From Tubiluchus corallicola (Eukaryota; Animalia; Priapulida), in contig JAQGDQ010000713.1 of the NCBI GenBank assembly GCA_030141605.1, positions 40,486 to 104,485 on the forward strand: a stretch of DNA of 64,000 nucleotides. Reading direction: 5' to 3'. Positions 2,917-63,094 of this stretch are shown piece by piece. The translations under genes were made by a program, and so were the position numbers. The notes under the pieces were generated by a model. It had not been told where the DNA came from. It saw nothing but the letters and a program-made list of their open reading frames with translations, and searched no databases. Position 1 is the first letter of the stretch, and the number at the start of each line of letters is the position of its first letter.

Positions 2917-5900
2917 CTGTTGTTGTTGTTATAGAAACACTTAGTTCTAATATTATTGTAATGTAAATTACGGCGCTTTTTTTTTTGTACCACCCGATAT
3001 ATTATTTTGCATTTTCAGCACGTGCGCAACTGCATCGCCAAGAGCAAAATTCCCCAGCTGATGCTGATGAACAAGCGAGCTGTGATCGAACAAATTCCCA
3101 AGAACATCTTCACCCTGCCGTCGTTCGTGCGGCGGGGGCTGCCGACTCCCCGGAGCGACAAAACCATTTCCTTGTGGGAAATCGACTACCCGCTGCGGAT
3201 TAGGATACTGTGGGCCACCTACGTGAATGTGAAGGAACTAGATAGGGTATGCGTACTTGCTTATGATATCGTGCCTTATTTTTTATGTACCCATTTTTGT
3301 TATTATTTAAGTCGTATATGTGCTTAAATTAGTAATGCAGCAACTCAAAGTATGACTGACTCGCGAGGCGTGTAATCATAACACCAGTTTGTGAGACCAG
3401 TTTTGTAATCATCTCTCTTCTTCATCTTCTTCCCAGCTTTTCCCTATGAGTCTTCTCCACGCATTCCTGTTGTTGACCATCTCTTCATTTATGTCTTCCC
3501 TTCCATGTAATCATCTCTCTAGCACGTGAAAATTAGGAAAGCACGGTCTCTCGGGGACTCATCTTTCATTTCTTGTCAGATATATGTGTGTGCCGGCATT
3601 TACCATGGTAGAGAGACGCTGTACTCACAGTATGTAATGTTTCAGATATACGTACGCGCCGGCATTTCCCACGGTAGACTGACGCTGTACTCACAGTATT
3701 TAATGTTTCAGATATACGTACGTGCCGGCATTTACCATGGTAGAGAGACGCTCTACTCACAGTATTTAATGTTTCAGATATACGTACGTGCCGGCATTTA
3801 CCACGATAGACTGACGCTGTACTCACAGTATGTAATGTTTCAGATATACGTACGTGCCGGCATTTACCACGGTAGAGAGACGCTGTACTCGCAGTATGTA
3901 ATGTTTCAGATATACGTACGTGCCGGCATTTACCACGGTAGACTGACGCTGTACTCACAGTATGTAATGTTTCAGATATACGTACGTGCCGGCATTTACC
4001 ATGGTAGACTGACGCTGTACTCACAATATTTAATGTTTCAGATATACGTACATGCCGGCATTTACCACGGTAGACTGACGCTGTACTCACAGTATGTAAT
4101 GTTTCAGATATACGTACGCGCCGGCATTTACCACGGTAGACTGACGCTGTACTCACAGTATTTAATGTTTCAGATATACGTACGTGCCGGCATTTACCAC
4201 GGTAGAGAGACGCTCTACTCACAGTATTTAATGTTTCAGATATACGTACGTGCCGGCATTTACCACGGTAGACTGACGCTGTACTCACAGTATGTAATGT
4301 TTCAGATATACGTACGTGCCGGCATTTACCACGGTAGACTGACGCTGTACTCACAGTATTTAATGTTTCAGATATACGTACGCGCCGGCATTTACCACGG
4401 TAGAGAGACGCTGTACTCACAGTATTTAATGTTTCAGATATACGTACGCGCCGGCATTTACCACGGTAGAGAGACGCTGTACTCACAGTATGTAATGTTT
4501 CAGATATACGTACGTGCCGGCATTTACCACGGTAGACTGACGCTGTACTCACAGTATGTAATGTTTCAGATATACGTACGTGCCGGCATTTACCATGGTA
4601 GACTGACGCTGTACTCACAGTATGTAATGTTTCAGATATACGTACGTGCCGGCATTTACCATGGTAGAGAGACGCTCTGCTCACAGTATTTAATGTTTCA
4701 GATATACGTACGTGCCGGCATTTACCACGGTAGAGAGACGCTCTGCTCAAACTTGGATACACAGCAGGTTCTGTTTTCAAATCCAAAGTGGAACGAGTGG
4801 CTGCAGTTTGACCTGTTCGTTCTTGACCTCCCCCACAGCGCACGTCTCTCGCTGTCGCTGTGCTCGGTGTCGAAGTCAAAGAAGAAAGGAAAAGAGGTAA
4901 AGTTTATCACTTTACCGGATGAGCTCGTTTCTTGAATGTTCCGCGGTGTTTCCCGGGTCTTCTGGAAATTTACCGGAAAGAGAGAAATTTTTTCCGAAGT
5001 AAAGTTGTGTGGAAATGAGTTATGCCGTGTTTCGACAAACCTTAAACCAAACCCAGACCCAATCTTAAACTGTAGGTCAAAACAATCAACTTTTTAAAAT
5101 ATTGATAGGAAACATGCTATTTTTTCAAAAATGACTTGTGTGAAAGAATTATTACCACTAACCTGAGAAAGGTAGCTGACTTGATGACCAATTGGTCTTT
5201 CGCTGCCCTTTCTCCTGCACACCCCTAACTCTTTCCTTTATGCATAATTTATCCTTTTTAATTAATAACTATAACAATAATAGTCTATTTGTATACTATG
5301 GTGTAAATGAGGAGATAAATAAAATGTTTATGTCTATGTCTATGTCTCTTAGACTTTGTAAGCAAGCATATGTAAACACAGTTGTGTTCTAAAAGTAAAC
5401 ACATGCGTCGAGTCACAACGAAAAAGGAATACCTATATACCTCAGCAAAATAATATGTTAAACTGTAGGTAAAAAAACAATCTACTCTTTAACATATTGA
5501 AAGGAAACGAACTATTTTTTTCGGATATGACTTACGTGAAAGAATTATTACCACACAAACACTATTTCACGTTCGTGCTACTAGTTCTTCGCTGTTACGT
5601 GCATTTCGCCATTCGCTAGTTAGACAGGCGCTAGCACCTTTATTTTGGAAATGCATTACGCAAAAACGGGTACTGTACTTCTCAGTTCAGATGTGTTAGT
5701 TTGTGACGAACTGCTCACGTTCGACAACTCGTGCGCGAGCACAGCCATAAATTTGAAATGTGAATTTTTATCTTAAAATCTGCCTAGTTTTAGTACAGCA
5801 TCTTGAGTATCTTACAGGAGCACTGCACTTCAATTTTCGCTTTCACAAACACGTGCAACATGCTCTTAGAATATTTTTGCTGTTGAAAGTTATGTTAGTT

Positions 5901-11900: not shown

Positions 11901-12623
11901 AGGTTTGGTAAAGTTTGCTAAAAAAAACGTTTTGTCATTACGGTTGTGTTGAACTATGTGCAAATTTGGTTTGCAATAAATTTTCAACTTTTTCGAGGAT
12001 GACCCACTGAAAGAATTATTACCATACAAACACAATTTCACCTTCGCGCCACCAGTTCTTCGCTAATATATGTATTTCGCCTTTCGCTAGTTAGGCGGGC
12101 ACTGACACCTGTGTTTCGGAAACGCATTGCACAAAAAACCGGCGCTGCACCTTTCAGTTCAGTTGTGTTAGTTTGTGAGGAACTGCGGTAAATTTGAAAT
12201 TTGAATTTTTATCTTAAAACACGCCTAGTTTTAGTACAACACACTGAATATCTTACAGTAGCACTCCACTTCAATTTTTACTTTCACAAACACGTGCAAC
12301 TCGCTCGTGGAATATTTTTGCTGTTGAAAATTATGTTAGTTTGTGATGTCATCGATAGTTAGGCTCACCCTCTGTTAATTAAGTTTTTAATTTATTATTT
12401 AACTATCAGAAACGCTTTTGCAGTATTAATTGTGTTAAAACGTGTACTTTTTATCGGTCTTGAAAATGGGGTAGTGTATGAAAAGTCGCGTGATGACGAG
12501 CTTTAATTTAGTAACTTATTCTGGATTTTCTTTTCTCTAAGGCACAAGTGTTTGGACATTCCTAATTCGTTGCCACGGCTACTACATGTTGTCAAGTGGG
12601 AGAACAGGGACGATGTAACAGAG
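1084..12623 (+). CDS. PIK3CA: Class I PI3K catalytic subunit p110alpha-like, partial (7 internal exons: 1084-1232, 3019-3246, 4702-4896, 8514-8640, 10273-10445, 11721-11836, 12542-12623)
   Basis: AG/GT-bounded, phase-compatible exons translate to [19 protein letters not shown] / ..[13 protein letters not shown] / [41 protein letters not shown] / [32 protein letters not shown] / [14 protein letters not shown] / [15 protein letters not shown] / [19 protein letters not shown]. This is collinear with the p110alpha RBD-C2-helical sequence. The 5' exons lie before the window. Confidence 0.93.
1263..1528. repeat. Direct tandem duplication, ~133 bp x2
   Basis: atgttgtttta..gctgcagacgattgtttcgacatcaactgtc..aaattatatcat occurs twice in tandem. 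Confidence 0.8.
2667..2931. repeat. Compound trinucleotide microsatellite (TTA/TCA/TTG/CTG)n
   Basis: Directly visible; explains the poly-N and poly-L ORFs. Confidence 0.97.
3577..4748 (+). repeat. 66-bp tandem array, 18 units, each containing the splice acceptor and first ~15 codons of the PI3K C2 exon
   Basis: CAG|ATATA acceptor copies at 3580+66k up to 4702; a unit translates [22 protein letters not shown] (22 aa). Confidence 0.96.
5536..6045 (+). repeat. Dispersed repeat, copy 1 (homologous to ~12008-12484)
   Basis: Shared diverged sequence tgaaagaattattacca..cagttcag..aaatttgaaat..gaaacgcttttgc..atgaaaa in two PI3K introns. Confidence 0.75.
6820..7832. mobile_element. Foldback/MITE-like non-autonomous DNA transposon with modular internal repeats
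   Basis: Terminal inverted repeats tataggttttacatgtcaaatgtagac (6820) and gtctacatttgatgtgtaaaacctata (to 7832). The left arm has tcaaatgt modules. The right arm has acatttga modules in 60-bp and 42-bp tandem units. Confidence 0.8.
7840..8479. mobile_element. hAT-like MITE
   Basis: Imperfect TIR ctgtagcggat / atccgccgctg; 8-bp flanks ataatacc / ataatact (7/8 match) fit a target-site duplication. Confidence 0.6.
9254..9849. mobile_element. Tc1/mariner (pogo/Tigger-like) MITE
   Basis: TIR ccgtattttcccgtgtataagagaccc / gggtctcttatacatgggaaaatacgg, flanked on both sides by TA. Confidence 0.88.
10415..11630 (+). repeat. 41-bp tandem array (~29 units), each containing the PI3K exon end and donor site
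   Basis: Unit tgcaagctttgggtttgacaactgcacacagg|gtaagttct; GT at 10446, 10487, 10528 and onward. Confidence 0.96.
12008..12484 (+). repeat. Dispersed repeat, copy 2 (homologous to ~5536-6045)
   Basis: See copy 1. Confidence 0.75.
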
Positions 12624-12675
12624 GTAACTAGTGCAATAGTTACAATAACGTTTTTGTATAACTAAGTATAACAGT

Positions 12676-15530
12676 TTTAACTAACGTAATTTGTGTAACT
12701 GAGGTAACTACATGTAGTGTAACAGTTGTAATTAATGCAATTTGTGTAACTGAGAAAATCACGTGTTGCGTAACAGTTGTAATTAATGCAATTTGTTTAA
12801 CTGAGATAACTACATGTAGCGTAACAGTTGTAATTAATGCAATTTGTGTAACTGAGGTAACTACATGTAGCGTAACAGTTGTAATTAATGCAATTTGTGT
12901 AACTGAGTAAATCACATGTAGTGTAACAGTTGTTACTAATGTAATTTGTGCAACTGAGGTAACTACATGTAGCGTAACAGTTGTAATTAATGCAATTTGT
13001 GTAACTGAGTAAATCGCGTGTAGCGTAACTGGTGTTACTAATGTAATTTGTGCAACTGAGGTAACTACATGTAGTGTAACAGTTGTAATTAATGCAATTT
13101 GTGTAACTGAGTAAATCACGTGTAGTGTAACTGGTGTTACTAATGTAATTTGTGCAACTGAGGTAACAACATGTAGCATAACAGTTGTAATTAATGCAAT
13201 TTGTGTAACTGAGTAAATCACGTGTAGTGTAACTGGTGTTACTAATGTAATTTGTGCAACTGAGGTAACTACATGTAGTGTAACAGTTGTAATTAATGCA
13301 ATTTGTGTAACAGAGAAAATCGTGTGTAGTGTAACTGGTGTTACTAATGTAATTTGTGCAACTGAGGTAACAACATGTAGCGTAACAGTTGTAATTAATG
13401 CAATTTGTGTAACTGAGTAAATCACGTGTAGTGTAACTGGTGTTACTAATGTAATTTGTGCAACTGAGGTAACTACATGTAGTGTAACAGTTGTAATTAA
13501 TGCAATTTGTGTAACTGAGTAAATCACGTGTAGTGTAACTGGTGTTACTAATGTAATTTGTGCAACTGAGGTAACTACATGTAGTGTAACAGTTGTAATT
13601 AATGCAATTTGTGTAACTGAGTAAATCACGTGTAGTGTAACTGGTGTTACTAATGTAATTTGTGCAACTGAGGTAACTACATGTAGTGTAACAGTTGTAA
13701 TTAATGCAATTTGTGTAACTGAGTTAATCACGTGTAGTGTAACTGGTGTTACTAATGTAATTTGTGCAACTGAGGTAACTACATGTAGTGTAACAGTTGT
13801 AATTAATGCAATTTGTGTAACAGAGAAAATCATGTGTAGTGTAACTGTTGTTACTAATGTAATTTGTGCAACTGAGGTAACAACATGTAGCATAACAGTT
13901 GTAATTAATGCAATTTGTGTAACTGAGAAAATCATGTGTAGTGTAACTGGTGTTACTAATGTAATTTGTGCAACTGAGGTAACTACATGTAGTGTAACAG
14001 TTGTAATTAATGCAATTTGTGCAACTGAGTAAATCATGTGTAGTGTAACTGGTGTTACTAATGTAATTTGTGCAACTGAGGTAACTACATGTAGCGTAAC
14101 AGTTGTAATTAATGCAATTTGTGTAACTGAGTAAATCATGTGTAGTGTAACTGGTGTTACTAATGTAATTTGTGCAACTGAGGTAACTACATGTAGCATA
14201 ACAGTTGTAATTAATGCAATTTGTGTAACTGAGTAAATCACGTGTAGCGTAACTGGTGTTACTAATGTAATTTGTGCAACTGAGGTAACTACATGTAGCA
14301 TAACAGTTGTAATTAATGCAATTTGTGTAACTGAGTAAATCACGTGTAGTGTAACTGTTGTTACTAATGTAATTTGTGCAACTGAGGTAACAACATGTAG
14401 CGTAACAGTTGTAATTAATGCAATTTGTGTAACTGAGTAAATCATGTGTAGTGTAACTGGTGTTACTAATGTAATTTGTGCAACTGAGGTAACTACATGT
14501 AGCGTAACAGTTGTAATTAATGCAATTTGTGTAACTGAGTAAATCATGTGTAGTGTAACTGGTGTTACTAATGTAATTTGTGCAACTGAGGTAACAACAT
14601 GTAGCATAACAGTTGTAATTAATGCAATTTGTGTAACTGAGTAAATCACGTGTAGTGTAACTGGTGTTACTAATATAATTTGTGCAACTGAGGTAACTAC
14701 ATGTAGTGTAACAGTTGTAATTAATGCAATTTGTGTAACAGAGAAAATCATGTGTAGTGTAACTGGTGTTACTAATGTAATTTGTGCAACTGAGGTAACA
14801 ACATGTAGCGTAACAGTTGTAATTAATGCAATTTGTGTAACTGAGTAAATCACGTGTAGTGTAACTGGTGTTACTAATGTAATTTGTGCAACTGAGGTAA
14901 CTACATGTAGTGTAACAGTTGTAATTAATGCAATTTGTGTAACTGAGTAAATCACGTGTAGTGTAACTGGTGTTACTAATGTAATTTGTGCAACTGAGGT
15001 AACTACATGTAGTGTAACAGTTGTAATTAATGCAATTTGTGTAACTGAGTAAATCACGTGTAGTGTAACTGGTGTTACTAATGTAATTTGTGCAACTGAG
15101 GTAACTACATGTAGCATAACAGTTGTAATTAATGCAATTTGTGTAACTGAGTAAATCACGTGTAGTGTAACTGGTGTTACTAATGTAATTTGTGCAACTG
15201 AGGTAACTACATGTAGTGTAACAGTTGTAATTAATGCAATTTGTGTAACTGAGGTAACTACATATAGCGTAACAGTTGTTATTAATGCAATTTATGTAAC
15301 TCAGAAAATCACGTGTAGTGTAACTGGTGTTACTAATGTAATTTGTGCAACTGAAGTAACTACATGTAACATAACATTGTTACTAATGTAATTTGTGTAA
15401 CTGAAGTAACTAAATGTGACTGAAGTATCAGTTGTTACTAATGTAATTTGTGTAACTGAGAAAATCATGTGTATTGTAACAGTTGTTACTAATGTAATTT
15501 GTGTAACTGAAGTAACTAAATGTGACTGAA
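12676..15530. repeat. Minisatellite with a 96-bp higher-order unit made of two diverged 48-bp monomers (~29 dimers)
   Basis: Alternating ..gcaactgaggtaactacatgtag.. and ..gtaactgagtaaatcacgtgtag.. monomers; 32-aa period in the minus-strand ORF. Confidence 0.96.
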
Positions 15531-18445: not shown

Positions 18446-19964
18446 GTATCAGAAGGGATTGGCTGTAGTGTAGTTAAAAATGGTTTGCCATAAAGTAGTT
18501 TCGAACTAGCTATCTTTGGAGTTGAGATGTCTGCTTGTTCCTACTGACGTCTGTCTTCACGAATCCATATTATATCAGTGAAGTCTTGAGTCTCCCTTAC
18601 TAAACATTTTTTGCTTTAATTGTATGCTTGATTATATGCTTTCAAGCTCATGCATTTAGGTAGCGTTTCATATAAATATGTCTCTCGGTGGTGGTGGATA
18701 GGCCTATATATAGTAGCAATGTGAAAAAATAATGTTTAAATTATATGATGTTTATTCTTCATAATTGTGCCTGATGTTTACTTTGCATTAAGGAATATTT
18801 AACGAAATTACTACATAGAATGGTAATTAGCAAGTTACAGGAGCGTGAGCCAGAAGGCAAAATTACATTATGGCTTATGACAGTGCCAGTAATGCAAACA
18901 GCCTAAACTCAAAACCTACTGTGAACACTGAAAATTGTCTAAGAAATTAATAATGTAAAAACAGTATTTCTAGAAATACGACCAGTAAAACACAACTAAA
19001 CGTGGAAGTAAAGAAATAGCAAAGACAGCAAAGACTTTGGCTAACCTGTTCCTGTTAATCTAGTATTTTGCTTTAGGTGGAAGTGGATTCTCTCAACTTC
19101 AGTGGTGTTTTATCATTTGCTTTGTCAAAATGTCCTAAAATCTTTTCAGTTGAGCATTAAGAAATTAATTATAAGCTGTATATGCCTTGTGGCACTATTC
19201 TTGCTGGCACAATCTGGCAGTAATTTTCGAATCAGAACCAGTATCAAAATCAGATGCACAGATATAGATTAATATACAGCTTCTGTTACTGAACTGTAAA
19301 CATAAAAAATGCATATCTGTCTACCAGAGGTGTAAATTTCAGCGAAACCAATAATGTAAGTATCACGATTTTAACTCTTAAATATATAATTTATTCAGCA
19401 AGGTGGCTTTGTGGCCACAGATTTGTGTTTCGGTCGGTTTTTGAAAAATTCTTAAATCTCCTGATTTCGACCATCACATTGAAATTAAGTGGAAAAAGCG
19501 GAAATTCAACTTGCATGCTAATTAAACTTTTTAAAAGATTATGCAAAAAATTCCACTGAGTCTCTGTTAATTAAGCTAACAGTAAACTTATTAAACTAAG
19601 TTTATAATCGGTTGCATAGCTTCATCATTTCACTCCATCTACATTTTGTGTCAATTTTTCCTGCATGATGGCAAATGCTGCAAAGCAAGTGTTCTTCCGC
19701 TTTAGCTTTATAATTTAGCTTTAAAGTTTTAGACTTTTAAGGCTTTTGGAATCTAAAATCAAGAATTTGTACTACTTTGTAGTTTGAATTTCTTGATTGT
19801 GGTTTCTGAGAAAGTCCTCATAAAACATTTAAAATGCAGTCATGCTTGGTTTCTAGGTCTCTGTCCTGGGGGAGCTTACAGCCCATCTAGCTAGGTCCTG
19901 ACTCCTGACTTCAGTTTGCGATAGGGTGGCAATCCTAATTCTAATTTGTGCTGCAGTAAGTAAT

Positions 19965-20518
19965 TGTAACGCAACGAAGTTAAGCAACGTAGAGCCTGGT
20001 TAGTACTTGGATGGGTGACATCCTAGGAATACCAGGTGCTGTAGGCTTGCGGGATGCCCACACTGTATCTCGACACTAGGCGGAGGAGCTGCACAAGCAG
20101 CCAACGGCTATAGGGCGGAGGAGGTCAAGTAACCCAACGGCCATGTGTAGAGGAGTAAACCTTCAAAATCAGGAATGGAGCCCCGAAGGCGGACCAGTGC
20201 AGCATGCTCACTGACTCCGGCAGCTCCTGCAGCTCCTGCAGCCAACCTTGTGCCAAACGCATCGCTGCGCTTTCCTTTGGACTACACTGGGGAGGAAAAG
20301 AGGGGGTTCCTGTTGTCTGGGCAACTCAGGATCTCCATACACTTTGCCCAGGCGTGCGCCCTGGAGACGTTCAAGTGCTCAGCCACAGTCGACGCTGCAG
20401 CTCCATTAATGTGATCAATAACTGACTCTCTTGGCGCACATTCCATTGTCTTCCGAGACAGAAGGATACCAACTGTCAAGGATTTTGTTTGTCAAATTTA
20501 GTATAGCTATAAGTTACA
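19965..20518 (+). mobile_element. 5S-headed element: either a SINE3-like element (ending ~20473) or a 5S-bearing LTR (TGTAAC...GTTACA)
   Basis: GC-rich island that starts with the 5S segment. Inverted ends TGTAAC (19965) and GTTACA (20513-20518) are followed by AG-TGGCGAC. Confidence 0.5.
19975..20048 (+). ncRNA. 5S rRNA-derived sequence (3' ~74 nt including the Pol III internal promoter boxes); part of a mobile element rather than a functional 5S gene
   Basis: cgaagttaagcaacgtagagcctggttagtacttggatgggtgac..ggaataccaggtgctgtaggctt matches the 3' two-thirds of animal 5S rRNA. The 5' ~46 nt and an oligo-T terminator are absent. Confidence 0.9.
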
Positions 20519-21041
20519 AGTGGCGACACCTGGCCTCAATAGTCGCTTCCTACAGAATTTCCGGTCATTTAGGTTTCAAGGTGTACATGTGGTGACGTGT
20601 CTGTGTGAACTCATGATTTAATGCCAACGATGTACGTAAATTTTATTTAGTCATTTATTTTATTTACTGTAAGCTTCTCATTAATTTAATCATATTCGAT
20701 GTTTTGGTAGAAATGAATCAGTTTATTAAAGAAATTTATATTTTATTTCAGATAAAATGTAATATTTTGGGATGAAGCAAATGACTACGGGGCATGTGCC
20801 ATGAAAATGGTACAAGCAATAAACAGTTATACTGAGCAAATGATGACTTTGTTTGTTTGTCTCCGTAAAGCCCAAGCAATTTTATATCGGCATTCGACAA
20901 TCCAGAGTGGACATTTTTATACAGTCAACATATGACCCAGATTGTGACCTACTTCTGGTTTAGCTACTGTTTCGCGTACATAGATTGACTTTTGTAGACA
21001 GGAGAAGTTATTTGGTCATGTTTAAAGTTGAACACACCTAA

Positions 21042-23390
21042 ATGATGTCGGACCAAACAACAAGGGAGAAATTAAAAAATACGACCCGTGATCAGCTGCG
21101 AGAAATGCTGCGGGCCAAACAACTGTCAGTTTCTGGTAGTAAAGAAGAGCTAATTCACAGACTCTTAGCAAGTCAGCAGAAACCAGATCATTCATATAAT
21201 GTGACGTCATGTGAAGCGTCTGGTACGTCGTCGTATGTTGATGCAGCTACAGCGACAGCGCAGCATCAAGTTGGCGAGCGCAGCCCTTCCAAAGCATCGT
21301 CAGGTGCTAGTCATTCGAAATCTACGAGACGGTCGAAGAAAAGTGCGAGGGAATTAAAGTTGCATGAGATTAAGATTCAGGAACAGGAGCTGAAATTAAA
21401 AGCAATGAAATTAAAACAGTTAAGACTTGAGAGTGAAGTTGCTTCACATAGCAGTGCAACCAGTCAGAAGTCGCGTACAACCGTCACCTCGCCTGAAATC
21501 AAGGACGAGACTTTAGCTAGGAAACCCATGTCAACCAAGGACAAGGTTACCGATTGGCTTCAAGGAGTGCGTGACGTCACCAAAGCCCAGTCATCAGACA
21601 CCAAGCCTGCAGTTCATCATACGTCTATGGAGGCCTATCTCACCATGGCAACGAACGACAGTTATGCTGAGGGAGTTCTTGTCTTGGCACACAGTCTGCG
21701 TCGAACTGGTACAACTCGACATCTAGCAATTTTGGTCACCCATACTGTTTCTAGCAGAGTTATGGCAGAGCTTAGTAATGTTTTTGATTATGTACAAATG
21801 ATTGATTTATTAAAGAGTAGTGATTTTGATAACTTGCATTTGCTAGGTAGGCCAGAGCTAAATGTAACATTCTCGAAATTGCACTGCTGGGCTATGACAC
21901 GGTTTACTAAATGCGTTTACTTAGATGCTGATACTTTAGTATTAGAAAATATTGATGAGCTATTTAATTATAATGAGCTTGCGGCTGCCCCAGATGTGGG
22001 GTGGCCTGATTGTTTTAATTCTGGTATGTTTGTATTTCAGCCTAGTTTGGAAACTTACAGTAGATTGTTGTCACTATCACAAACTGAGGCCTGTTCATTC
22101 GATGGCGGTGATCAGGGTTTATTAAATTTAGCCTTTCCGAACTGGAGTTCACAGTTTGACAAGCGCCTACCTTATGTGTATAATGCTGCCGTCCAAGGTC
22201 GTTACGGTTACCTGCCTACAATGAAGCAGTTCAGTAGCAAGATTAAAGTTGCGCACTTTTTAGGCCGAAAGAAGCCCTGGGATTATACTGAATATGTAAA
22301 CGGGGAGATCTCCGTCAATTTTTCGGACTTTGAATCAGGTTTTCTTCGTAGATGGTGGGATATCTATTTGTCTGATGTACAGCCCTTCTTCGAAAATTCT
22401 CCTAGTGAAGTTTTAGAACCTAGCGTTAAACAAACTACGTCGTTCTGCCGTGCCGCATTTAAATCACCCCAGGTAGAACAAACTTTAAATACTTCTGCAC
22501 GTGACTTCGTCCCAGGGAATATGCATCTTCCGCTTCCGGCTACATCGCCTCAGGCTTCTTATGGTAGCGGAGTTCAAAATAGTTCTAGGAATTTCTCTGG
22601 TAGGGCTAGTCAGAATGACATGAACGTTTTTATGGACCTCATGTTAGAAGGCCAAAGACAACACTTAAATATGTACAATGCTATGCAGCTTCCACACGTG
22701 CAGCTTGAAACGTTTGATGGTGACGTAATGAGGTTCTGGAGCTTTATCAAGCGTTTCGAAGCCAGCGTGGAGAACTATACCCAAGATGATGCAGCGAGGT
22801 ACACTAGGTTAGCCCAACTCTGCATTGGTAAAGCTAAAAGAGTTGTTGACAGTTGTAATTACATGGACCCCTGTTTTGCATATGGGCATGCTAAACAGCT
22901 TTTAACCGAAAGAGTCGGCTCGCCATTTGTTGTCACACAGGCCTGGCTTTCCAGAATTGCTGAATTTGAGCCCATAAAGATAAATGAGCCGGGAAAGTTA
23001 CAGGAATTTTCGGATTTGATTGTGGCTTGTGTGGAAACTTTGAAAATAATGAACAACGTTTGCGAAATTAGTACTCAATGCAGTTTGCTACAAATAATTA
23101 AAAAACTCCCATTCAAGTTCCAGGATAGGTGGAAGGATGTTGTAGCCAGGCTTCTGAAATATGAGCACAGGAATCCGACGATATTTGATGTAGTCGAATT
23201 CACTAAGGACGCAGCTGACAAAATGAATCATCCTGTCTTTGGCGACATTAACGTTAGCCTGCCTACCAGGAGCCCAAGAGGTAAACGCGACACTAAAGCC
23301 AGGAATTTCGCCAACTCAGCGCAGGAAACTGCGTCAATTACGAAATGCAACAGTGAACGACAACCCGGAAATACAACAAGGAAGTGGTAG
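21042..23390 (+). CDS. gag: Gag-like ORF: SAP domain, coiled coil, glycogenin GT8 domain, BEL/Pao Gag core
   Basis: SAP-like TRDQLREMLRAKQLSVSGSKEELIHRLL; GT8 domain from MEAYLTMATND to WWDIYLSDV; Gag core LPHVQLETFDGDVMRFWSFIKRFEASV..IIKKLPFKFQDRW..NHPVFG. Confidence 0.92.
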   Translation: MMSDQTTREKLKNTTRDQLREMLRAKQLSVSGSKEELIHRLLASQQKPDHSYNVTSCEASGTSSYVDAATATAQHQVGERSPSKASSGASHSKSTRRSKKSARELKLHEIKIQEQELKLKAMKLKQLRLESEVASHSSATSQKSRTTVTSPEIKDETLARKPMSTKDKVTDWLQGVRDVTKAQSSDTKPAVHHTSMEAYLTMATNDSYAEGVLVLAHSLRRTGTTRHLAILVTHTVSSRVMAELSNVFDYVQMIDLLKSSDFDNLHLLGRPELNVTFSKLHCWAMTRFTKCVYLDADTLVLENIDELFNYNELAAAPDVGWPDCFNSGMFVFQPSLETYSRLLSLSQTEACSFDGGDQGLLNLAFPNWSSQFDKRLPYVYNAAVQGRYGYLPTMKQFSSKIKVAHFLGRKKPWDYTEYVNGEISVNFSDFESGFLRRWWDIYLSDVQPFFENSPSEVLEPSVKQTTSFCRAAFKSPQVEQTLNTSARDFVPGNMHLPLPATSPQASYGSGVQNSSRNFSGRASQNDMNVFMDLMLEGQRQHLNMYNAMQLPHVQLETFDGDVMRFWSFIKRFEASVENYTQDDAARYTRLAQLCIGKAKRVVDSCNYMDPCFAYGHAKQLLTERVGSPFVVTQAWLSRIAEFEPIKINEPGKLQEFSDLIVACVETLKIMNNVCEISTQCSLLQIIKKLPFKFQDRWKDVVARLLKYEHRNPTIFDVVEFTKDAADKMNHPVFGDINVSLPTRSPRGKRDTKARNFANSAQETASITKCNSERQPGNTTRKW
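21627..22391 (+). CDS. GYG: Captured intronless glycogenin catalytic domain (GT8), in frame within Gag
   Basis: Motifs AYLTMATNDSYAEGVLVL, RPELNVTFSKLHCW, KCVYLDADTLVLENIDELF, ELAAAPDVGWPDCFNSG, SFDGGDQGLLN, LPYVYN, YGYLP, HFLGRKKPW and FLRRWW are collinear with animal glycogenin-1. Confidence 0.96.
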
Positions 23391-24633
23391 CAAAATGGCT
23401 TCTCAACGCCTAGAGATGCCTTGTTTTCTATGTAACTCTACGGAACACCGTTCACTCAAGCTATGCAATAAATTTAAGTCAATGAATGATACTGATAGAT
23501 TGAAAACCGCCAGAAGAGAAGGTCTTTGCTTCAATTGTTTGATTAAAGGAAAGCACAGGGCTTCTCGATGCTTCAAAGCAGGATGCGACGTAGAAGGATG
23601 CAGACGTAAGCATTCAAATTTACTGCATGCTGCCTTGGAGAAAATGTCACCTTCTAAAAACAATGATGAAAGCAAGGAGAAAAAAGCGCCAACACATTGC
23701 AAACCAGAGGCTTCTAGCAGTTGTGCTAGTATTAAGGAAGGCGGCAAAGCGGCTCTCCCTGTTGTCTCAGTTTTGGTTGAAGTTGATGGGAAGATGCCCG
23801 TGCGTACTTTAGCCCTACTTGACCCTGGCTCGACTAACACCTTTTGTACAAAGGCATTGTTCGACAAACTTGGGGCTACTAGACAAAAACGAACGCTCTC
23901 TTTAACCACTATAGAAGAGAAATATTCCAAGATAAACACTTTAATCACGAAGATGTCTGTTACTGGGGTAAACACTGGCAATAAAATAGCTTTGCCTTAT
24001 GTCTTCGTTAGGCCTGCATTGTTGCTGGAAAAGGACTGCTTGGCCTTTAGCAAGGATGTAGAACAATGGCCGCATTTGCAAGGAATCCCCCTATCGTTCA
24101 CAGATACAGAAGACCTAACTGAGCTGGGCCTTTTGATCGGCCAGGATGTTCCTGATGCGCTGATTCCTCTTGAGCTACGAACAGGTCCTAGACTAACGCC
24201 ATATGCTGTAAAGACAAAGCTAGGCTGGACCCTTAATGGACCCATAGGAGGCGGCGTTCCTAATTTAGGGCGCATTTGTAGTAATTTGACCCAAGCCAAT
24301 GCATTGTCATATGGAGAAACCAATTCCTTGCAGCAGCAAATAGAACAATTCTGGAAAATTGAAACTAGCGAGTTTGACAGACAATTCTTTTTAGACGATA
24401 TGCGTGCTCTCGATATATGGGAGGCTTCAATTACAAAAACACATGGGCATTACCAGTTGGACATCCCATTTAAATCTGAGAATGATGTTTTACCAGATAC
24501 GCTACAAATGGCTTCATCTAGATTGGAAAGTCTACGTAAACGGCTGCAGAGGAACCCAGAATTGCACAACCGATACACTATAGCTATAAATGACCTACCT
24601 ATTCAAGAAAGGATATGCAGAAGAGATCGATGA
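23239..24633 (+). CDS. BEL/Pao polyprotein segment: zinc knuckles and aspartic protease
   Basis: CFLCNSTEH..C, LCFNCLIKGKHRASRC, CDVEGCRRKHSNLLH; protease ALLDPGS and LLIGQD; PYAVKTKLGWTLNG. Confidence 0.92.
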   Translation: MATLTLACLPGAQEVNATLKPGISPTQRRKLRQLRNATVNDNPEIQQGSGSKMASQRLEMPCFLCNSTEHRSLKLCNKFKSMNDTDRLKTARREGLCFNCLIKGKHRASRCFKAGCDVEGCRRKHSNLLHAALEKMSPSKNNDESKEKKAPTHCKPEASSSCASIKEGGKAALPVVSVLVEVDGKMPVRTLALLDPGSTNTFCTKALFDKLGATRQKRTLSLTTIEEKYSKINTLITKMSVTGVNTGNKIALPYVFVRPALLLEKDCLAFSKDVEQWPHLQGIPLSFTDTEDLTELGLLIGQDVPDALIPLELRTGPRLTPYAVKTKLGWTLNGPIGGGVPNLGRICSNLTQANALSYGETNSLQQQIEQFWKIETSEFDRQFFLDDMRALDIWEASITKTHGHYQLDIPFKSENDVLPDTLQMASSRLESLRKRLQRNPELHNRYTIAINDLPIQERICRRDR

Positions 24634-27403
24634 AGATGATGACCCTACTTCCAGGAAATGGTTTTTTCCCCATTTTCCGGTGTTTAATGCCAATAAACCA
24701 GAGAAAACTCGCATCGTCTTTGATGCAGCAGCGGAAACAAATGAAGTATCTCTAAATAAATTAGCATTGCAAGGGCCAGATCTCACAAACACGTGCATTG
24801 GAGTTTTGCTTCGGTTTAGAGAGAATCCTATTGCAGTAATGGCGGATATCCGGGAGATGTTCCACCAGGTGATCGTGTCTCCAAAACACAGAAATATGAT
24901 GCGTTTCCTTTGGTGGAAAGATAGAAATCTTAACAGTCAACCATGTACTTTTAGAATGTGTGTACACTTGTTCGGCGGGGTGTGGTCCCCGAGCGTTGCA
25001 TCATTTGCTTTGCAAAGGACTGCAAAAGACAATGCAGATCTGTTTCCCGCAAATGTTGTCGCTACCATTTTGAGAAACTTCTATGTGGACGACCTTTTAA
25101 AATCGCTAAACACCGTGAATGAAGCCATACAGTTAGTTTCTCAACTGACTGCCTTATTGTCTCTTGGTGGATTCCACATAACTAAGTGGATGAGCAACAG
25201 ACGTGAGGTCTTGGCATCTGTGCCTGCTGAAGAACTTGGAAGCGAAGTCAAGAATCTTGACTTAACTCAGAGCCCTCTGCCAACTGATCGCGTACTGGGA
25301 GTTAAATGGCTAGTTGAGGAAGATTGCCTTGGAATCTTGGTTTCACTCAAAGACAAGCCCAGTACAAAACGAGGAATGTTAAGCTGCATTTCGTCAGTCT
25401 ATGACCCATTAGGAATGATCTGTCCATTCGTTTTGCAGGCCAAAAAACTCTTCCAAGATGAATGTAGAATTCAGAAAAAGGATTGGGATGACGCTCTAGA
25501 ACGAGATACAGAAGCCAAGTGGGCAAAGTGGAAAGGAGATTGTATCGCACTAGAAAACTTCAAGTTGGAGAGATGCATGAAGGCTCGTGATTTTGGCCTG
25601 ATTTTCCATTTGCAGTTGCATCATTTCTGCGATGCTTCGAGCTATGCTTATGGTACTGTCAGTTATGTACGTATGAAGAGTGCTCAAGGTGAAATTCACA
25701 CAGCATTCCTCATGGCTAAATCAAGACTTGCCCCACTTAAAGGTCTTACAATACCGCGTCTTGAACTCTGCGCTGCAGTTTTAGCCTCTAAAGTTGATCA
25801 AATGCTTAGGGAAGAGCTATCCTTTTGTGCTGGTACAGATCAGTCGGTCTTCTGGACTGATAGTCAGATAGTTATTCATTACATTCGGAACACAGCAAAG
25901 CGGTTTCATACATTCGTCCAAAACCGTGTCAACTCAATCTTGCAAGTCTCTTCACCAACTCAATGGCGGTTTGTTAGCTCAACAGACAACTGCGCTGATG
26001 ATGCGTCCCGAGGCATGAGCGCTGAAGAATTGCTACTTTCCAATAGATGGAAGTTTGTTCCATCTTTCTTAAGAAAAGATGAAGCTTCGTGGCCGCAGAC
26101 TAATTTAGATTCGGATGATATACTAGCTAATGACAAAGAAGTAAAGCGGTCAGCCACTGTGAACGTCGTAGAATGCAAAGGAACTTCAAATAATGTCATA
26201 GATCAATTGTTGCAGCATTACTCATCCTTTTACAGGCTAAAAAGAGGTTTAGCCTGGTTATTACGAGCCAAAACAATATTGCACAGGAAAGCTTCTGGCG
26301 GAAGTGATATGGATTGTTCCACAAATCTAACTCTGACTGAATTAAATGAGGCCCAGAATGAGCTGATCAGACACACACAGAAGCAAAGTTTCAACAAAGA
26401 ATATAAGACGATGTGTTCCCGTACCAAATCTACATGCCCAGAACGCTCTGTAACCAAATCATCCTGCCTGTATAAGCTGGATCCCTTTATTGATAAAGAG
26501 GGAATTTTGCGTGTCGGCGGTCGCCTGCAAGATGCTCTAGTAGATCATGAAGCTCGTCATCCTGTTATTCTTCCCAAAAATCATAGACTCTCTTGGCTTG
26601 TCATACAGCACTTCCACGAGACAAATGGACATACAGGTAGAGAACATGTCATGGCTTCAGTCCGTAGAGCGTTCTGGATAATTGGGATGCGAGTCATGGT
26701 GCGGAAAGTAATCCATGAATGCAGACAATGTAGGCTGCGTTACTCTCAACCATTGCAACAAAAGATGGCCAACTTGCCTCCTGAGAGAGTTCAACAAGGC
26801 TCCTTCTCTGCGGTTGGCGTGGACTGCTTTGGACCAATTTTGGTCAAACGTGGTAGAATCGAGGTGAAGCGTTATGGGGCACTCTTTACTTGTCTAGCCA
26901 CACGAAGCATCCACTTGGAGGTACTCTTCTCGATGTCTACAGATTCCTTCATTAAAGCACTCCATAGATTTTGTAGCAGAAGAGGCAAACCTAACAGAAT
27001 TAGGTCCGACTGTGGCACTAATTTTATAGGTGCCAACAAGCAACTTTCCAAGGCTATGAAAGAGTGGAATCACAACACTATTCAGAAAGACTTGCTCCAG
27101 GAGAACATCGAGTGGGAGAATAATCCGCCACGGGCTCCCCACATGGGAGGAGTATGGGAAGCAATGGTCAAGATTGTCAAGAAGCATTTGCTTTCTGTGA
27201 CAAATGAACAAGCTCTTGATGATGAAGCTCTCAACACTCTATTCTGCATTGTTGAAAACGTTGTCAATAGTAGGCCTTTAACGGCAACCTCGGACGACCC
27301 AAAAGATTGTAGTCCTCTGACGCCCAATCACCTGCTGTTGGCGAAGTGTTGGCGAAATTTATTACATATTTCTTTTCTCTCTAGTACAAACTACACACAC
27401 TAA
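24590..27403 (+). CDS. pol: BEL/Pao Pol segment: RT, RNase H, integrase (C-terminus truncated)
   Basis: KTRIVFDAA, LQGPDL, ADIREMFHQV, NFYVDDLL; HHFCDAS, TIPRLELCAA, FWTDS; integrase H..H..C..C zinc finger and DDE (VGVDCFG, RSDCG, VWEAM); recognisable homology ends at PLTPNHLLL. Confidence 0.95.
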   Translation: MTYLFKKGYAEEIDEDDDPTSRKWFFPHFPVFNANKPEKTRIVFDAAAETNEVSLNKLALQGPDLTNTCIGVLLRFRENPIAVMADIREMFHQVIVSPKHRNMMRFLWWKDRNLNSQPCTFRMCVHLFGGVWSPSVASFALQRTAKDNADLFPANVVATILRNFYVDDLLKSLNTVNEAIQLVSQLTALLSLGGFHITKWMSNRREVLASVPAEELGSEVKNLDLTQSPLPTDRVLGVKWLVEEDCLGILVSLKDKPSTKRGMLSCISSVYDPLGMICPFVLQAKKLFQDECRIQKKDWDDALERDTEAKWAKWKGDCIALENFKLERCMKARDFGLIFHLQLHHFCDASSYAYGTVSYVRMKSAQGEIHTAFLMAKSRLAPLKGLTIPRLELCAAVLASKVDQMLREELSFCAGTDQSVFWTDSQIVIHYIRNTAKRFHTFVQNRVNSILQVSSPTQWRFVSSTDNCADDASRGMSAEELLLSNRWKFVPSFLRKDEASWPQTNLDSDDILANDKEVKRSATVNVVECKGTSNNVIDQLLQHYSSFYRLKRGLAWLLRAKTILHRKASGGSDMDCSTNLTLTELNEAQNELIRHTQKQSFNKEYKTMCSRTKSTCPERSVTKSSCLYKLDPFIDKEGILRVGGRLQDALVDHEARHPVILPKNHRLSWLVIQHFHETNGHTGREHVMASVRRAFWIIGMRVMVRKVIHECRQCRLRYSQPLQQKMANLPPERVQQGSFSAVGVDCFGPILVKRGRIEVKRYGALFTCLATRSIHLEVLFSMSTDSFIKALHRFCSRRGKPNRIRSDCGTNFIGANKQLSKAMKEWNHNTIQKDLLQENIEWENNPPRAPHMGGVWEAMVKIVKKHLLSVTNEQALDDEALNTLFCIVENVVNSRPLTATSDDPKDCSPLTPNHLLLAKCWRNLLHISFLSSTNYTH

Positions 27404-28344
27404 CAAAGGTGCCACTTGCTGGTCGGCCACTGCTTTGCGATATGCTTCAGTACAACCTAAAGACATGTGCTCACACCTAGCATAACCTCTTTGGTTATCG
27501 CATTTCTTGGACCAATTTTTACATTGGTTTTCATAAGCATAATTTGGAAGTTGACAGCTATTATAGTGATATTCTTTTAATTTCTGTTTGAAGTCGGGGA
27601 GATGTTATATTTGTTTTATTTCACTGAATAGTGATTTCCATAAATTTATGGAATGATTTCATATGGAATGATTTCCAAATTTATTGTTTACTGTAATTTA
27701 ATTTAAACTGTGCATTGTATTGTTTCAAGAGATATCAGGAGTGGATGATAAAGTATTATTTAGAAATTGAATGCTCAGTTTACTCATAAAGAAATATTAA
27801 TGTTTTATTTGAGTTTTTTGTGGAAGGTTCTTAAATTTGTTGTAGAAGTGGCATGTTGTTTAGCAGACGGGGGGATATTAGCCATGTATTAGTCTAAATG
27901 CAGAATTTTGCATTGTATTTAGTTTTATATTTTATAAAGTTTTCTTTTTTTAACGTTTTGTAATAAAGTGCATCAGAAGTAACTAAAGTCTCTGAGACGT
28001 TACTTGGAAATGCAAAAAAAAAACTAAAAGTTTCATTGTTAAGAGTATTGTGGCGCGCCATCTGATGCAGCATAACTTGTTAAGTATTAATATTACAATT
28101 AAACAGAAGCGTGTTCAAAATTGTGCATTTGTGCATGTACTTTCTAGTTGTGAACAACACGAATTGGTGGCAGACAGGACAAGTCAATTAGAGCAAAACT
28201 TACAAGTCAAACTGAACTGCGGAGTTGCTAAGAATGTCATATTTTTGCATGGGACCAACGTCGCTTTTACTCGGAAGGTAAATTAATGTCGAGGTTTATA
28301 TAAAAGTGTTAAATAACTTAACGCTAAGTATTATTGTTAGGACA

Positions 28345-29123
28345 TTGGCATCAAACATAGTATAATGTACTTATACAAAAACGTTAATTTTACTACCAGT
28401 CACTATTACTAGTTTTGCAAGCGTCTGGGTTTGCAACGATTATAAAATGCGTGATGATTTGGCAATTACTTACCTAAAGCTGATCATTCTTTGCCAACAG
28501 AAATTACGTTATTTATGTTTGGCAGGCAACATATTTAAACGTTTTACCTTCTTCATGCATGTTGAAATGGTTTTTGATGGACTCTGTCAGCCTGTGCAAA
28601 GGTTATGTTGAGTTAATCTAAAGCTAGAAGAGCATATTAATAAAGCAAGCAAAATCGGGACGGATGTATAATGTGTTAACAGGGGCACATCTACCAACAG
28701 ACTAATAATAATAATAATAATGTTGCATATACCACATGAGCACACAAATAATTATAGTAAGTACAGGCAACTAGAAATTGGCATCAAATATAGTATAATG
28801 TATGTGCGCAAAAAATTAACTTTACTACAAGTCACTATTAGTAGTTGTGCAAGTCTGTGTTTGCAACGATTATAAAATGCGTAGTGATTTGGCAATAACT
28901 TACCAAAAGCTGATCATTCTTTGCCAACAGAAATTACGCTATTTATCTTTGGCAGGCAACATATTCAAACGTTCTACCTTCTTTGTGCATGTTGATGGCT
29001 CCGCCTCCTTTGCAAAGGTTATGTTGAATCAATCTGAAACTAGGATCATAAAATAATAAAATAAGCATAAACATGGCTGATATATAAAAGTGTTAACAGA
29101 GGCGTATCTACCAATAGACTAAC
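28345..29123. repeat. Diverged direct duplication (~430-bp period, x2)
   Basis: attggcatcaaa..tttgcaacgattataaaatgcgt..ttgccaacagaaattacg..catctaccaa occurs at ~28345 and ~28777. Confidence 0.8.
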
Positions 29124-29349
29124 AAATTTTGATGGGCATTTTACGGATCCAGTGTTAAAAAATTTTCCTCCAAAATGCTTATTACCATTATTGTAATATA
29201 ATACAGCTACAGAACGTATTATTTTCTAACACGCCACTAGCAGTTATACTGTCCGCTTTTATGTAAACTGCAAACAAGTACAAATGATTATTGCATACAT
29301 ATATATATATACAGTGACAACACTCGTGTGTAATTCTGGGCGGTGTCGT

Positions 29350-35738: not shown

Positions 35739-61090
<25,352 letters not shown>

Positions 61091-63094
61091 ATTTAATAAT
61101 TTCAATTAATGCTCAGTTATTTTTAATAACTGAATAATCCTATACTCAGTTTGGGTGGCTGATTTGATCACTGGTGTCTTTCGCCACCCCTTCACATTTG
61201 TTTGATAATTTAATTTATACTGATTTTCTATGTATTTTTATTGGGACAAAAATAAATTATTTGATTTTATTTGATTAATTAACAATCAAGTTGACTAAGT
61301 AACCGCACAAATTAAAGGCTGTCAGTAACGGAGGATTTACTATTACTGATTTTCATACTCAGACATAGATAATAAAATAAATGCAGGTATAATGGTGTGC
61401 ATTATAATTAAAATTGTAAGATACAATGATTGTGATTTTAAAACATGATTAATAGTTAGCTTCAACATGTGTAAGTTAGGCATATAAAATGCTAGCATCT
61501 GTGCTAAATTTCTCTGCAAAAGGAGGTGTTGTGTGTATATTTCTATTATGCCAAGTAAAGTTTTGATATCATAATCGTCATAGAGTTTAAGTTTAAACAC
61601 TAAAGAAGATGACAAATACTATGACAACGTGAACAACAGTGGAGATCTTTACAGTCACACGGAAAATATCTCGTTAGCATAATTCAGAAGATTCCAAGAA
61701 AGGCAATTAAAATTCAGAGGCTGCAGCTCAATGGCTTGCAATGGATCAGAACGACTTACACCGTCAATTATGGCGCCCTCCCGCACGTGATTGCTGGAAA
61801 ATTTATTTAAATTAGATAAAATATATTTTCGCCTTATCTATAAAACATTCAAGTACATACAGCACAACGGCAGTAAATAGGGTCTCAACTTTGAGCCACA
61901 AGAGACCAAAATTTTACATAATTAAAATAAAACAAAAATAAAAAGGTGACGTAGCGCAATTTTAGATGTACTAAAACCAGGAAATAAATTGTTATAAAAT
62001 GCAAAAGATCACGTAAATGACAAAACTAATAAAACAATTAGTGTTTCACCTATATTTCATCTATACATTAGTTTTCTCCATTTTTCCAGCATCTCAAACT
62101 AAACTTTGGCAGTAATTTTACATTCTCAGGCTTTCCCATTAAATAATTAAACTTACCTAGATCATTCCAGTCATTAAATGTGGTTTCGTATTAAAATATC
62201 CATTGATCAAATTGGTTCGTTAATTGTCAAAAACATTGTAAAAAGACGTGCGTCACACCCTCGATAGTACCTCAATTACACAATTAACATTATCGTTCAT
62301 TACCTGGGATTCTTTCATAATACACTGTTTCACTTCTAACTAGGACAGTGCGGCCAGTGCCACATTTAAGTGACGAATTGTATTACAATATCTGGCTTCA
62401 GAACCCTGTTGAAACATAAGGTATTATCTACCAATACTATTGCAAGCTAAACGTTAACTAACACGGGAAAATATTTGCCCGGCAATTAATTTACTTGAAA
62501 TTATAAGCATAAACTTTAATTATATGTATTTTCCCGTGTTTCGCGAAATACCGTTAATCGTAATATAAAACCGGATTCATGACAACGGTAAAATTTAATA
62601 GTGTTTAAACGACATATCCTGGCACAAAAAAACTAAAAAAGCAAGTAACCAAAACTTTACATTCCGGATGAGTTGTGTACAAAAAACGAATGGAGTCATT
62701 GTCGTACTGACGTAGCCATCTTTGCTCATTATAGAGCATTTAGTAGGTAATGGTTATCGTTGAATTGTATCCATGTACTGGATCCAACGGTAATGATCTT
62801 GATGAACAATGTTCTTTGTATAAAATAAACACTTCTCAAATTCATTAGTTTTTGTTGTTTAGTTTTACTTCTTCTGCTCTAAGAATTGCAAATTTACAAT
62901 CTTTTATTGTATTAAAAACGATTTTCTCACACAAAAATTCTCACCACAACTGAGAACTCGACCTGTGACAATTCTCCACATTTCCCGAACATTTGTTATT
63001 CCATTGCCAACTTGATTGTTGGATACCTAATAGAGTAGGGATAAATAATTACGACTATATATATATGTGTGTATATATAGTCGTGTTTTCAGCT

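Follow-up and report, generated by a model that had tools for sequence, protein, structure and literature searches.

Animal glycogenin builds a chain of ~7–12 α-1,4-linked glucoses on its own tyrosine (PMC7046021, in extract), and the region that binds glycogen synthase (GS) is the last ~34 residues of the protein (PMC9188544, in extract). LTR retrotransposons rarely acquire host enzymes stably, and the examples found involve RNA modification, apoptosis, or ubiquitin-linked domains. In orchids, a captured AlkB m6A demethylase is fixed in a Gypsy lineage, where it occupies a separate extra open reading frame (ORF) and acts on RNA with demonstrated activity, according to the accessible part of the report (PMC9289625). 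In planarians, the available sections of a review of the Burro elements (PMC6431247) describe host-like BIR, MATH, ankyrin, and BCL2-like domains in the polyprotein of an invertebrate retroelement; ‘glycosyl’ has 0 occurrences in that review. Unlike Burro, which comprises giant Gypsy elements with regulatory domains, and unlike the orchid lineage, the element described here carries a glycogenin domain, known from sequence, in frame within its Gag protein.

A glycogenin domain in the Gag protein of a Bel/Pao element

The 64-kb stretch of DNA that we analysed (the window) contains the following features:

20474–20900, + strand: probable 5′ LTR, beginning with TGT and with AATAAA at 20818–20823; its 3′ end is approximate
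21042–23390, + strand: Gag ORF1, 782 aa, with a stop before the zinc knuckles in the window copy
21084–21167, + strand: SAP-like domain at the Gag N terminus, residues 15–42 (Pfam PF02037, E 6e-5, 22.9 bits, just below the 23.9 cut-off)
21627–22391, + strand: glycogenin GT8 catalytic domain in Gag (Pfam, phmmer, AF2 fold)
21924–21932, + strand: DxD metal-binding motif, D100/D102, equivalent to human D102/D104 (alignment to GYG1)
22203–22205, + strand: equivalent of the acceptor tyrosine, Y193, human Y195 (alignment to GYG1)
22254–22256, + strand: histidine H210, equivalent to human H212 (alignment to GYG1)
22713–23138, + strand: Bel/Pao Gag capsid-type domain DUF1759, residues 558–699 (Pfam PF03564, E 9e-5, below cut-off; ESM Atlas 0.97 to a DUF1759 cluster)
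23227–24633, + strand: Cys/His knuckles and aspartic protease in a stop-free frame (weak Pfam hits), out of frame with ORF1 in the window copy
24590–27403, + strand: pol frame with RT, Pao Peptidase_A17, and integrase; in the window copy it is not in the reading frame of the protease

The GT8 domain is 255 residues long (ORF1 residues 196–450). ORF1 matches Pfam GT8 with E 1.4e-18, above cut-off, and a phmmer comparison with human GYG1 (PDB entry 7q0b_E aligned) spans residues 2–254 with E 1e-82 and ~50% identity over the full catalytic domain. An AF2 model from a 51-row alignment (pLDDT 86, pTM 0.87) superposes on GYG1 (3U2W) with Z 35.2 and an rmsd of 1.8 Å over 252 residues. Homology to the full-length GYG1 catalytic domain, of GT-A/GT8 type, confirms that 21627–22391 encodes a whole glycogenin GT8 catalytic domain. 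The initial annotation, which proposed that glycogenin had been captured into Gag without stops or frameshifts, is borne out on both points by the Pfam and phmmer matches and by the in-frame ORF, open over all 255 residues.

The domain has no introns and begins at a methionine near the usual start of host glycogenins. The closest host proteins found have 55–57% identity, and the domain is ~48% diverged from any of them. In a quick tree it falls among animal glycogenins on a branch of 1.82, compared with a median of 0.23 (~8×), with no well-supported neighbour, so that no donor lineage is singled out. Two small indels in the domain occur together in just 1 of the 359 other glycogenins scored.

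Within Gag, the domain lies in frame in the linker between the SAP-like N terminus and the capsid domain. Downstream, Peptidase_A17 (PF05380, E 1e-43) and Integrase_H2C2 (PF17921, E 1e-10) both score above cut-off, and the protease–RT–integrase order is that of Bel/Pao, with weak matches for protease and RT. The DUF1759-type Gag (Pfam below cut-off, Atlas 0.97) and Cys/His knuckles are likewise present. Judged by these domains, the glycogenin-carrying element is a Bel/Pao LTR retrotransposon. Of its LTRs and target-site duplication, only the probable 5′ LTR is seen, with no second copy of it in the 64-kb window, and the window copy appears to be cut at its 3′ end.

Two observations concern sequences adjoining these features. 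Immediately upstream, 19949–20473 holds a repeat that derives from 5S rRNA and is probably a SINE (Rfam 5S, E 0.001, below the gathering score); copies of this repeat continue into varied flanks at 20473, and the probable LTR begins directly after it. In the linker that follows the GT8 domain, LNTSARDFVP (22485–22514, ORF1 residues 482–491) fits the pattern of PAM2, a motif that interacts with poly(A)-binding protein, and gives no Pfam hit.

The window copy is dead, because its frame is broken downstream of the domain and no 3′ LTR lies within the 64-kb window. The ORF1 stop at 23388–23390 precedes the knuckles, a second frame break lies near 24600, and similarity to the element seems to end near 27350. 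Because contigs from other copies have a different sequence at the first break, this break looks more like damage than like programmed frameshifting.

Elsewhere in the window, a long stop-free frame at 3523–4935 ends in a PI3K C2 domain (E 4e-16); it probably represents one large exon of a PI3K gene of the host, and marks the surrounding genome as animal-type. A tandem array at 12563–15400 has a 51-bp unit (~53 overlapping matches) and long stop-free minus-strand frames, a ~430 bp unit at 28341–29125 is present in two tandem copies that are 81% alike, and 29427–30018 matches 60848–61457 at 74%.

Retained active site and absent glycogen synthase-binding tail

Human GYG1 residues were mapped to the GT8 domain through the phmmer alignment to 7q0b_E. 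T83, K86, D160, D163, and K218 correspond to T81, K84, D159, D162, and K216, and W128 and Y197 to W126 and Y195. All 11 mapped residues (T83, K86, D102, D104, W128, D160, D163, Y195, Y197, H212, and K218) are invariant in 119/119 host glycogenins. The domain has the DxD and histidine metal site with T83, K86, D160, and D163 and, at the sequence level, the acceptor Y195 with the dimer contacts Y197, W128, and D160. The claim, made earlier by eye, that DxD, the metal histidine, T83/K86, D160/D163, and the acceptor tyrosine are all present thus holds in the GYG1 alignment and against the 119 hosts. D102H and T83M are patient variants (PMC7046021, in extract).

Around this core, the domain departs from host glycogenins. 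The acceptor arm preceding the tyrosine is unlike that of hosts (A187, A188, V189, R192, and G194), as are the lid residues K63 and N79, and the C loop, at 24 residues, is shorter than the host mode of 26 and is gapped at the position of human P238, a residue proposed to position the acceptor tyrosine (PMC12267440, section 11). Overall, the domain agrees with 84 of 98 conserved columns, compared with 91–98 for hosts, from which the columns were themselves defined. Intact motifs need not mean self-glucosylation, because human GYG2 shows hardly any self-glucosylation even though its Y228 and dimer contacts are intact (PMC12267440, in the part available).

The GS-binding region was sought with a profile built from 67 host C-terminal tails, which scored 4/4 control glycogenins at E 1e-17 or better. 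Against ORF1 and the six frames of the window, the profile found nothing (best E 0.63). A W[EQ]xG tail motif follows the catalytic domain in 105/119 hosts; the Gag-borne domain lacks the C-terminal GS-binding motif and is therefore not filed as a full glycogenin. The initial annotation had the tail replaced by Gag: its absence stands, but the domain is inserted within Gag, with 195 Gag residues preceding it, so the tail was not simply replaced.

The fusion in other copies of the element

Contigs from four sequencing runs (X1, X2, X4, and X5; 4 of 6 runs, from three studies) were compared with positions 20400–23400 of the window. X1 and X2 derive from one sample, which may be the source of the window, and contig depth was not taken as copy number and cannot rank parts of the gene. 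The 5′ junction, from linker to GT8 domain, is bridged by X2 record 11 (143/169 letters on each side), X4 record 18 (32/211), and X5 record 26 (127/241), and the 3′ junction, from GT8 domain to linker, by X1 record 6 (78/515). Single runs contain overlapping contigs of different form (X1 records 7 and 8, X4 records 20 and 21, X5 records 26 and 27), and contig forms at position 20816 of the probable LTR come from 8, 7, and 3 contigs in X1, X2, and X4. Seven long X1 records differ from the window copy at 33/2013 sites (1.6%); because the X1 and X2 contigs differ from it, they show other copies. X5 contains a relative, 9–17% diverged, that already has the Gag–glycogenin fusion. With its junction bridged in three studies, once in this diverged relative, the fusion belongs to the element family and not only to the window copy: it is a feature of a retrotransposon family.

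Randomised catalytic residues in other copies would have spoken against an active domain, and are not seen where the sequence can be read. X2 record 13, which covers 22069–22287 with the DxD codons outside this interval, has 3 differences, none in the codons for D159, D162, Y193, Y195, H210, or K216. X5 cover of the GT8 domain ends at 22199, short of the acceptor tyrosine and histidine codons. At 22301–22325, X1 and X2 copies differ from the window copy by frame-keeping indels in the C loop, and loop length therefore varies without a break in the frame. Broken versions of the domain also exist, since a deep X4 contig (21920–22264), which may be a decayed or non-autonomous derivative, is frameshifted, with a gap of 2 bases and 17 differences in 343 over the GT8 domain. 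X5 also contains another glycogenin-like sequence, more distant than the first, that fits at 21984–22021 and 22093–22136. Its loose ends, read by eye, keep both small indels of the GT8 domain, and it is either a host gene, representing the donor lineage, or an older sister family.

Probable selection on the domain

The GT8 domain keeps 46 of the 49 columns that are invariant in the 119 hosts, and the other 3 are V-I, L-M, and F-Y exchanges. At the 97 columns conserved in 90% of hosts, its 13 departures have a mean BLOSUM62 score of +1.08, compared with −0.70 for simulated neutral point mutation (P 1e-4). In the X5 relative, the GT8 core differs from the window copy at 34/390 positions (8.7%), the Gag linkers at 93/556 (16.7%), and the capsid at 65/577 (11.3%). 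This test compares nucleotide divergence by region, and is not a dN/dS ratio, and draws on few X5 contigs of depth 4–12. The core is less diverged than the linkers (Fisher P 3e-4, or 2e-3 when the deepest record is used by itself), also when record 26, which includes some linker, is added (GT8 divergence 10.1%, P 6e-4), while the difference between GT8 and capsid is not significant (P 0.23). A core less diverged than the linkers, together with conservative departures, points to selection, and the GT8 domain is likely to be under purifying selection in the family.

Within the 40 differences listed (with 314 further), 37 fall in ORF1 and comprise 13 silent and 24 replacement changes, which is near neutral and as expected for decay of the window copy. 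At 4 of the 6 replacement differences in the GT8 domain, other copies have the residue of 76–99% of hosts and the window copy one found in 0–3%; part of the divergence is therefore decay of the window copy.

A possible self-glucosylating Gag

These findings suggest, with a probability of about 0.55, a Bel/Pao family with an animal glycogenin catalytic domain in its Gag, captured from mRNA and maintained by selection, that self-glucosylates its tyrosine and places glucose chains on the predicted particle exterior. Capture would have occurred from a spliced host mRNA by template switching during reverse transcription, taking a segment that runs from about the start methionine through the end of the catalytic fold but does not include the linker and GS-docking tail. 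By analogy with GYG1 chemistry, Gag multimerisation would bring GT8 domains together, and with Mn and UDP-glucose each acceptor, the Y195 equivalent, could receive ~7–12 α-1,4-linked glucoses. Such chains would be poorly extended and stay short, because GS could not dock in the absence of the tail. Gag usually has its N terminus outward and its nucleocapsid inward. In this general layout, the GT8 domain, N-terminal to the capsid, would face the cytosol on the outside of the particle, and particles would therefore be glucan-coated. The coat might tether particles to glycogen-rich cytoplasm, for example in the germ line, or shield them from host recognition. That a capsid primes its own glycan in this way, with a glycogen-like coat that lets the particle enter eggs along with glycogen stores or evade the defences of the host, is a doubtful extension of the model. 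Self-glucosylation itself is plausible as the most likely activity of the domain, because the whole active site and the acceptor are kept.

The main rival reading, possible if unlikely, is that selection maintains the domain for another role: it might be a module through which Gag dimerises or binds glucan, or an enzyme whose acceptor is another region of Gag or a host protein. The remodelled acceptor arm, shorter C loop, and long branch would fit such a change, as would the retained dimer contacts W128, D160, and Y197, the precedent of GYG2 (PMC12267440, in extract), and the existence of a glycogenin-like GT8 enzyme that acts on another protein, the Skp1 galactosyltransferase 6mw5 (phmmer E 3e-31); a pure scaffold, however, would not need the acceptor tyrosine and the full donor and metal site that the domain keeps. 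That the domain is a neutral passenger, a piece of glycogenin that came to lie in frame in a Gag linker able to tolerate it and is replicated with the element without function, is improbable. The frameshifted X4 contig, the near-neutral 13 silent and 24 replacement changes among the listed ORF differences, and the lack of an evident benefit to the element are consistent with it, but a domain ~48% diverged from hosts that has no stop, all catalytic residues, and conservative substitutions (P 1e-4), and that differs less between family branches than the linkers do, argues for constraint.

Host manipulation, with the tail-less domain pairing with host glycogenin or draining UDP-glucose and so altering glycogen initiation where the element is active, appears quite improbable. 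Glycogenin works as a dimer that is bound to GS through its tail (PMC9188544, in extract), and a domain that keeps the dimer contacts and lacks the tail could interfere with it; against this, the domain is fixed in a structural protein and has diverged strongly from glycogenins of the host type, two features that favour homotypic use, and a clear gain for the element is not apparent. The contrast in the window copy between an ORF1 open over 782 codons and a broken pol would fit a domesticated gene of the host, a single retrocopy, or a chimera of the assembly, but these readings are highly improbable: contigs from three studies bridge the junctions, runs contain several variant forms, and the window copy differs by 1.6% from the longest X1 contigs, its private changes being near neutral. 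If the extension to a glycan-priming capsid is true, a captured metabolic enzyme would have given the element a capsid that glycosylates itself. A conserved glycogenin in Gag would tie transposon particles to glycogen metabolism and suggest a cytosolic capsid able to glycosylate itself, and would offer a natural test case for a glycogenin catalytic domain acting without GS.

Comparison with known systems

Relatives of the domain were sought in protein, metagenome, and viral sequences. No second glycogenin–Gag fusion is found among 407 homologous proteins, and outside the GT8 domain no part of ORF1, whether N-terminal, linker, or capsid, has a match in them (best E 0.34). The homologues searched were 44 of 1370–3910 aa, the best 120 of 280 at 430–1369 aa, the best 120 of 1348 at 140–447 aa, and the best 150 of 8045 representatives, from protein databases that under-represent transposon ORFs. 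In the 16 homologues compared with Pfam, neither a Gag nor a pol domain appears. A metagenome scan gave 3 loci with 50–55% identity on contigs of 1.9–2.0 kb, and viral contigs gave no match for GT8 or capsid. A glycogenin or glycosyltransferase in an LTR element was not found in the titles and abstract beginnings that made up the literature searched, with subscription papers, supplements, and Repbase/Dfam outside this scope.

Viral GT8 proteins (baculovirus/granulovirus P13 and mimivirus p13-like) also place a GT8 fold in a viral entity (Foldseek E 3e-18 to 2e-8). Unlike the domain described here, they are free proteins of large DNA viruses and not Gag fusions, and with top full-length matches only 22–24% identical (partial P13 29–37%) they are not true glycogenins. 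The domain is far closer to animal GYG1 (PDB 3T7M, 3U2W), with which it shares ~50% catalytic-domain identity, the fold (Z 35), and the metal, donor, acceptor, and dimer residues, but differs from GYG1 in being intron-less, in lacking the linker and GS-binding motif, and in its altered acceptor arm, two rare indels, and long branch. The element as a whole follows the Bel/Pao (Belpaoviridae) order of Gag (DUF1759), knuckles, protease, RT, Peptidase_A17, and integrase. Three surveys of Bel/Pao elements (PMC3118150, PMC8556966, and PMC6238403) have 0 occurrences of ‘glyco’ in their main text; extra domains may be listed in the supplements. Unlike the Bel/Pao elements of these surveys, the window element has a 255-aa host enzyme inside its Gag. 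Host-enzyme capture by LTR elements is already known; the glycogenin cargo and its position inside Gag appear to be new.
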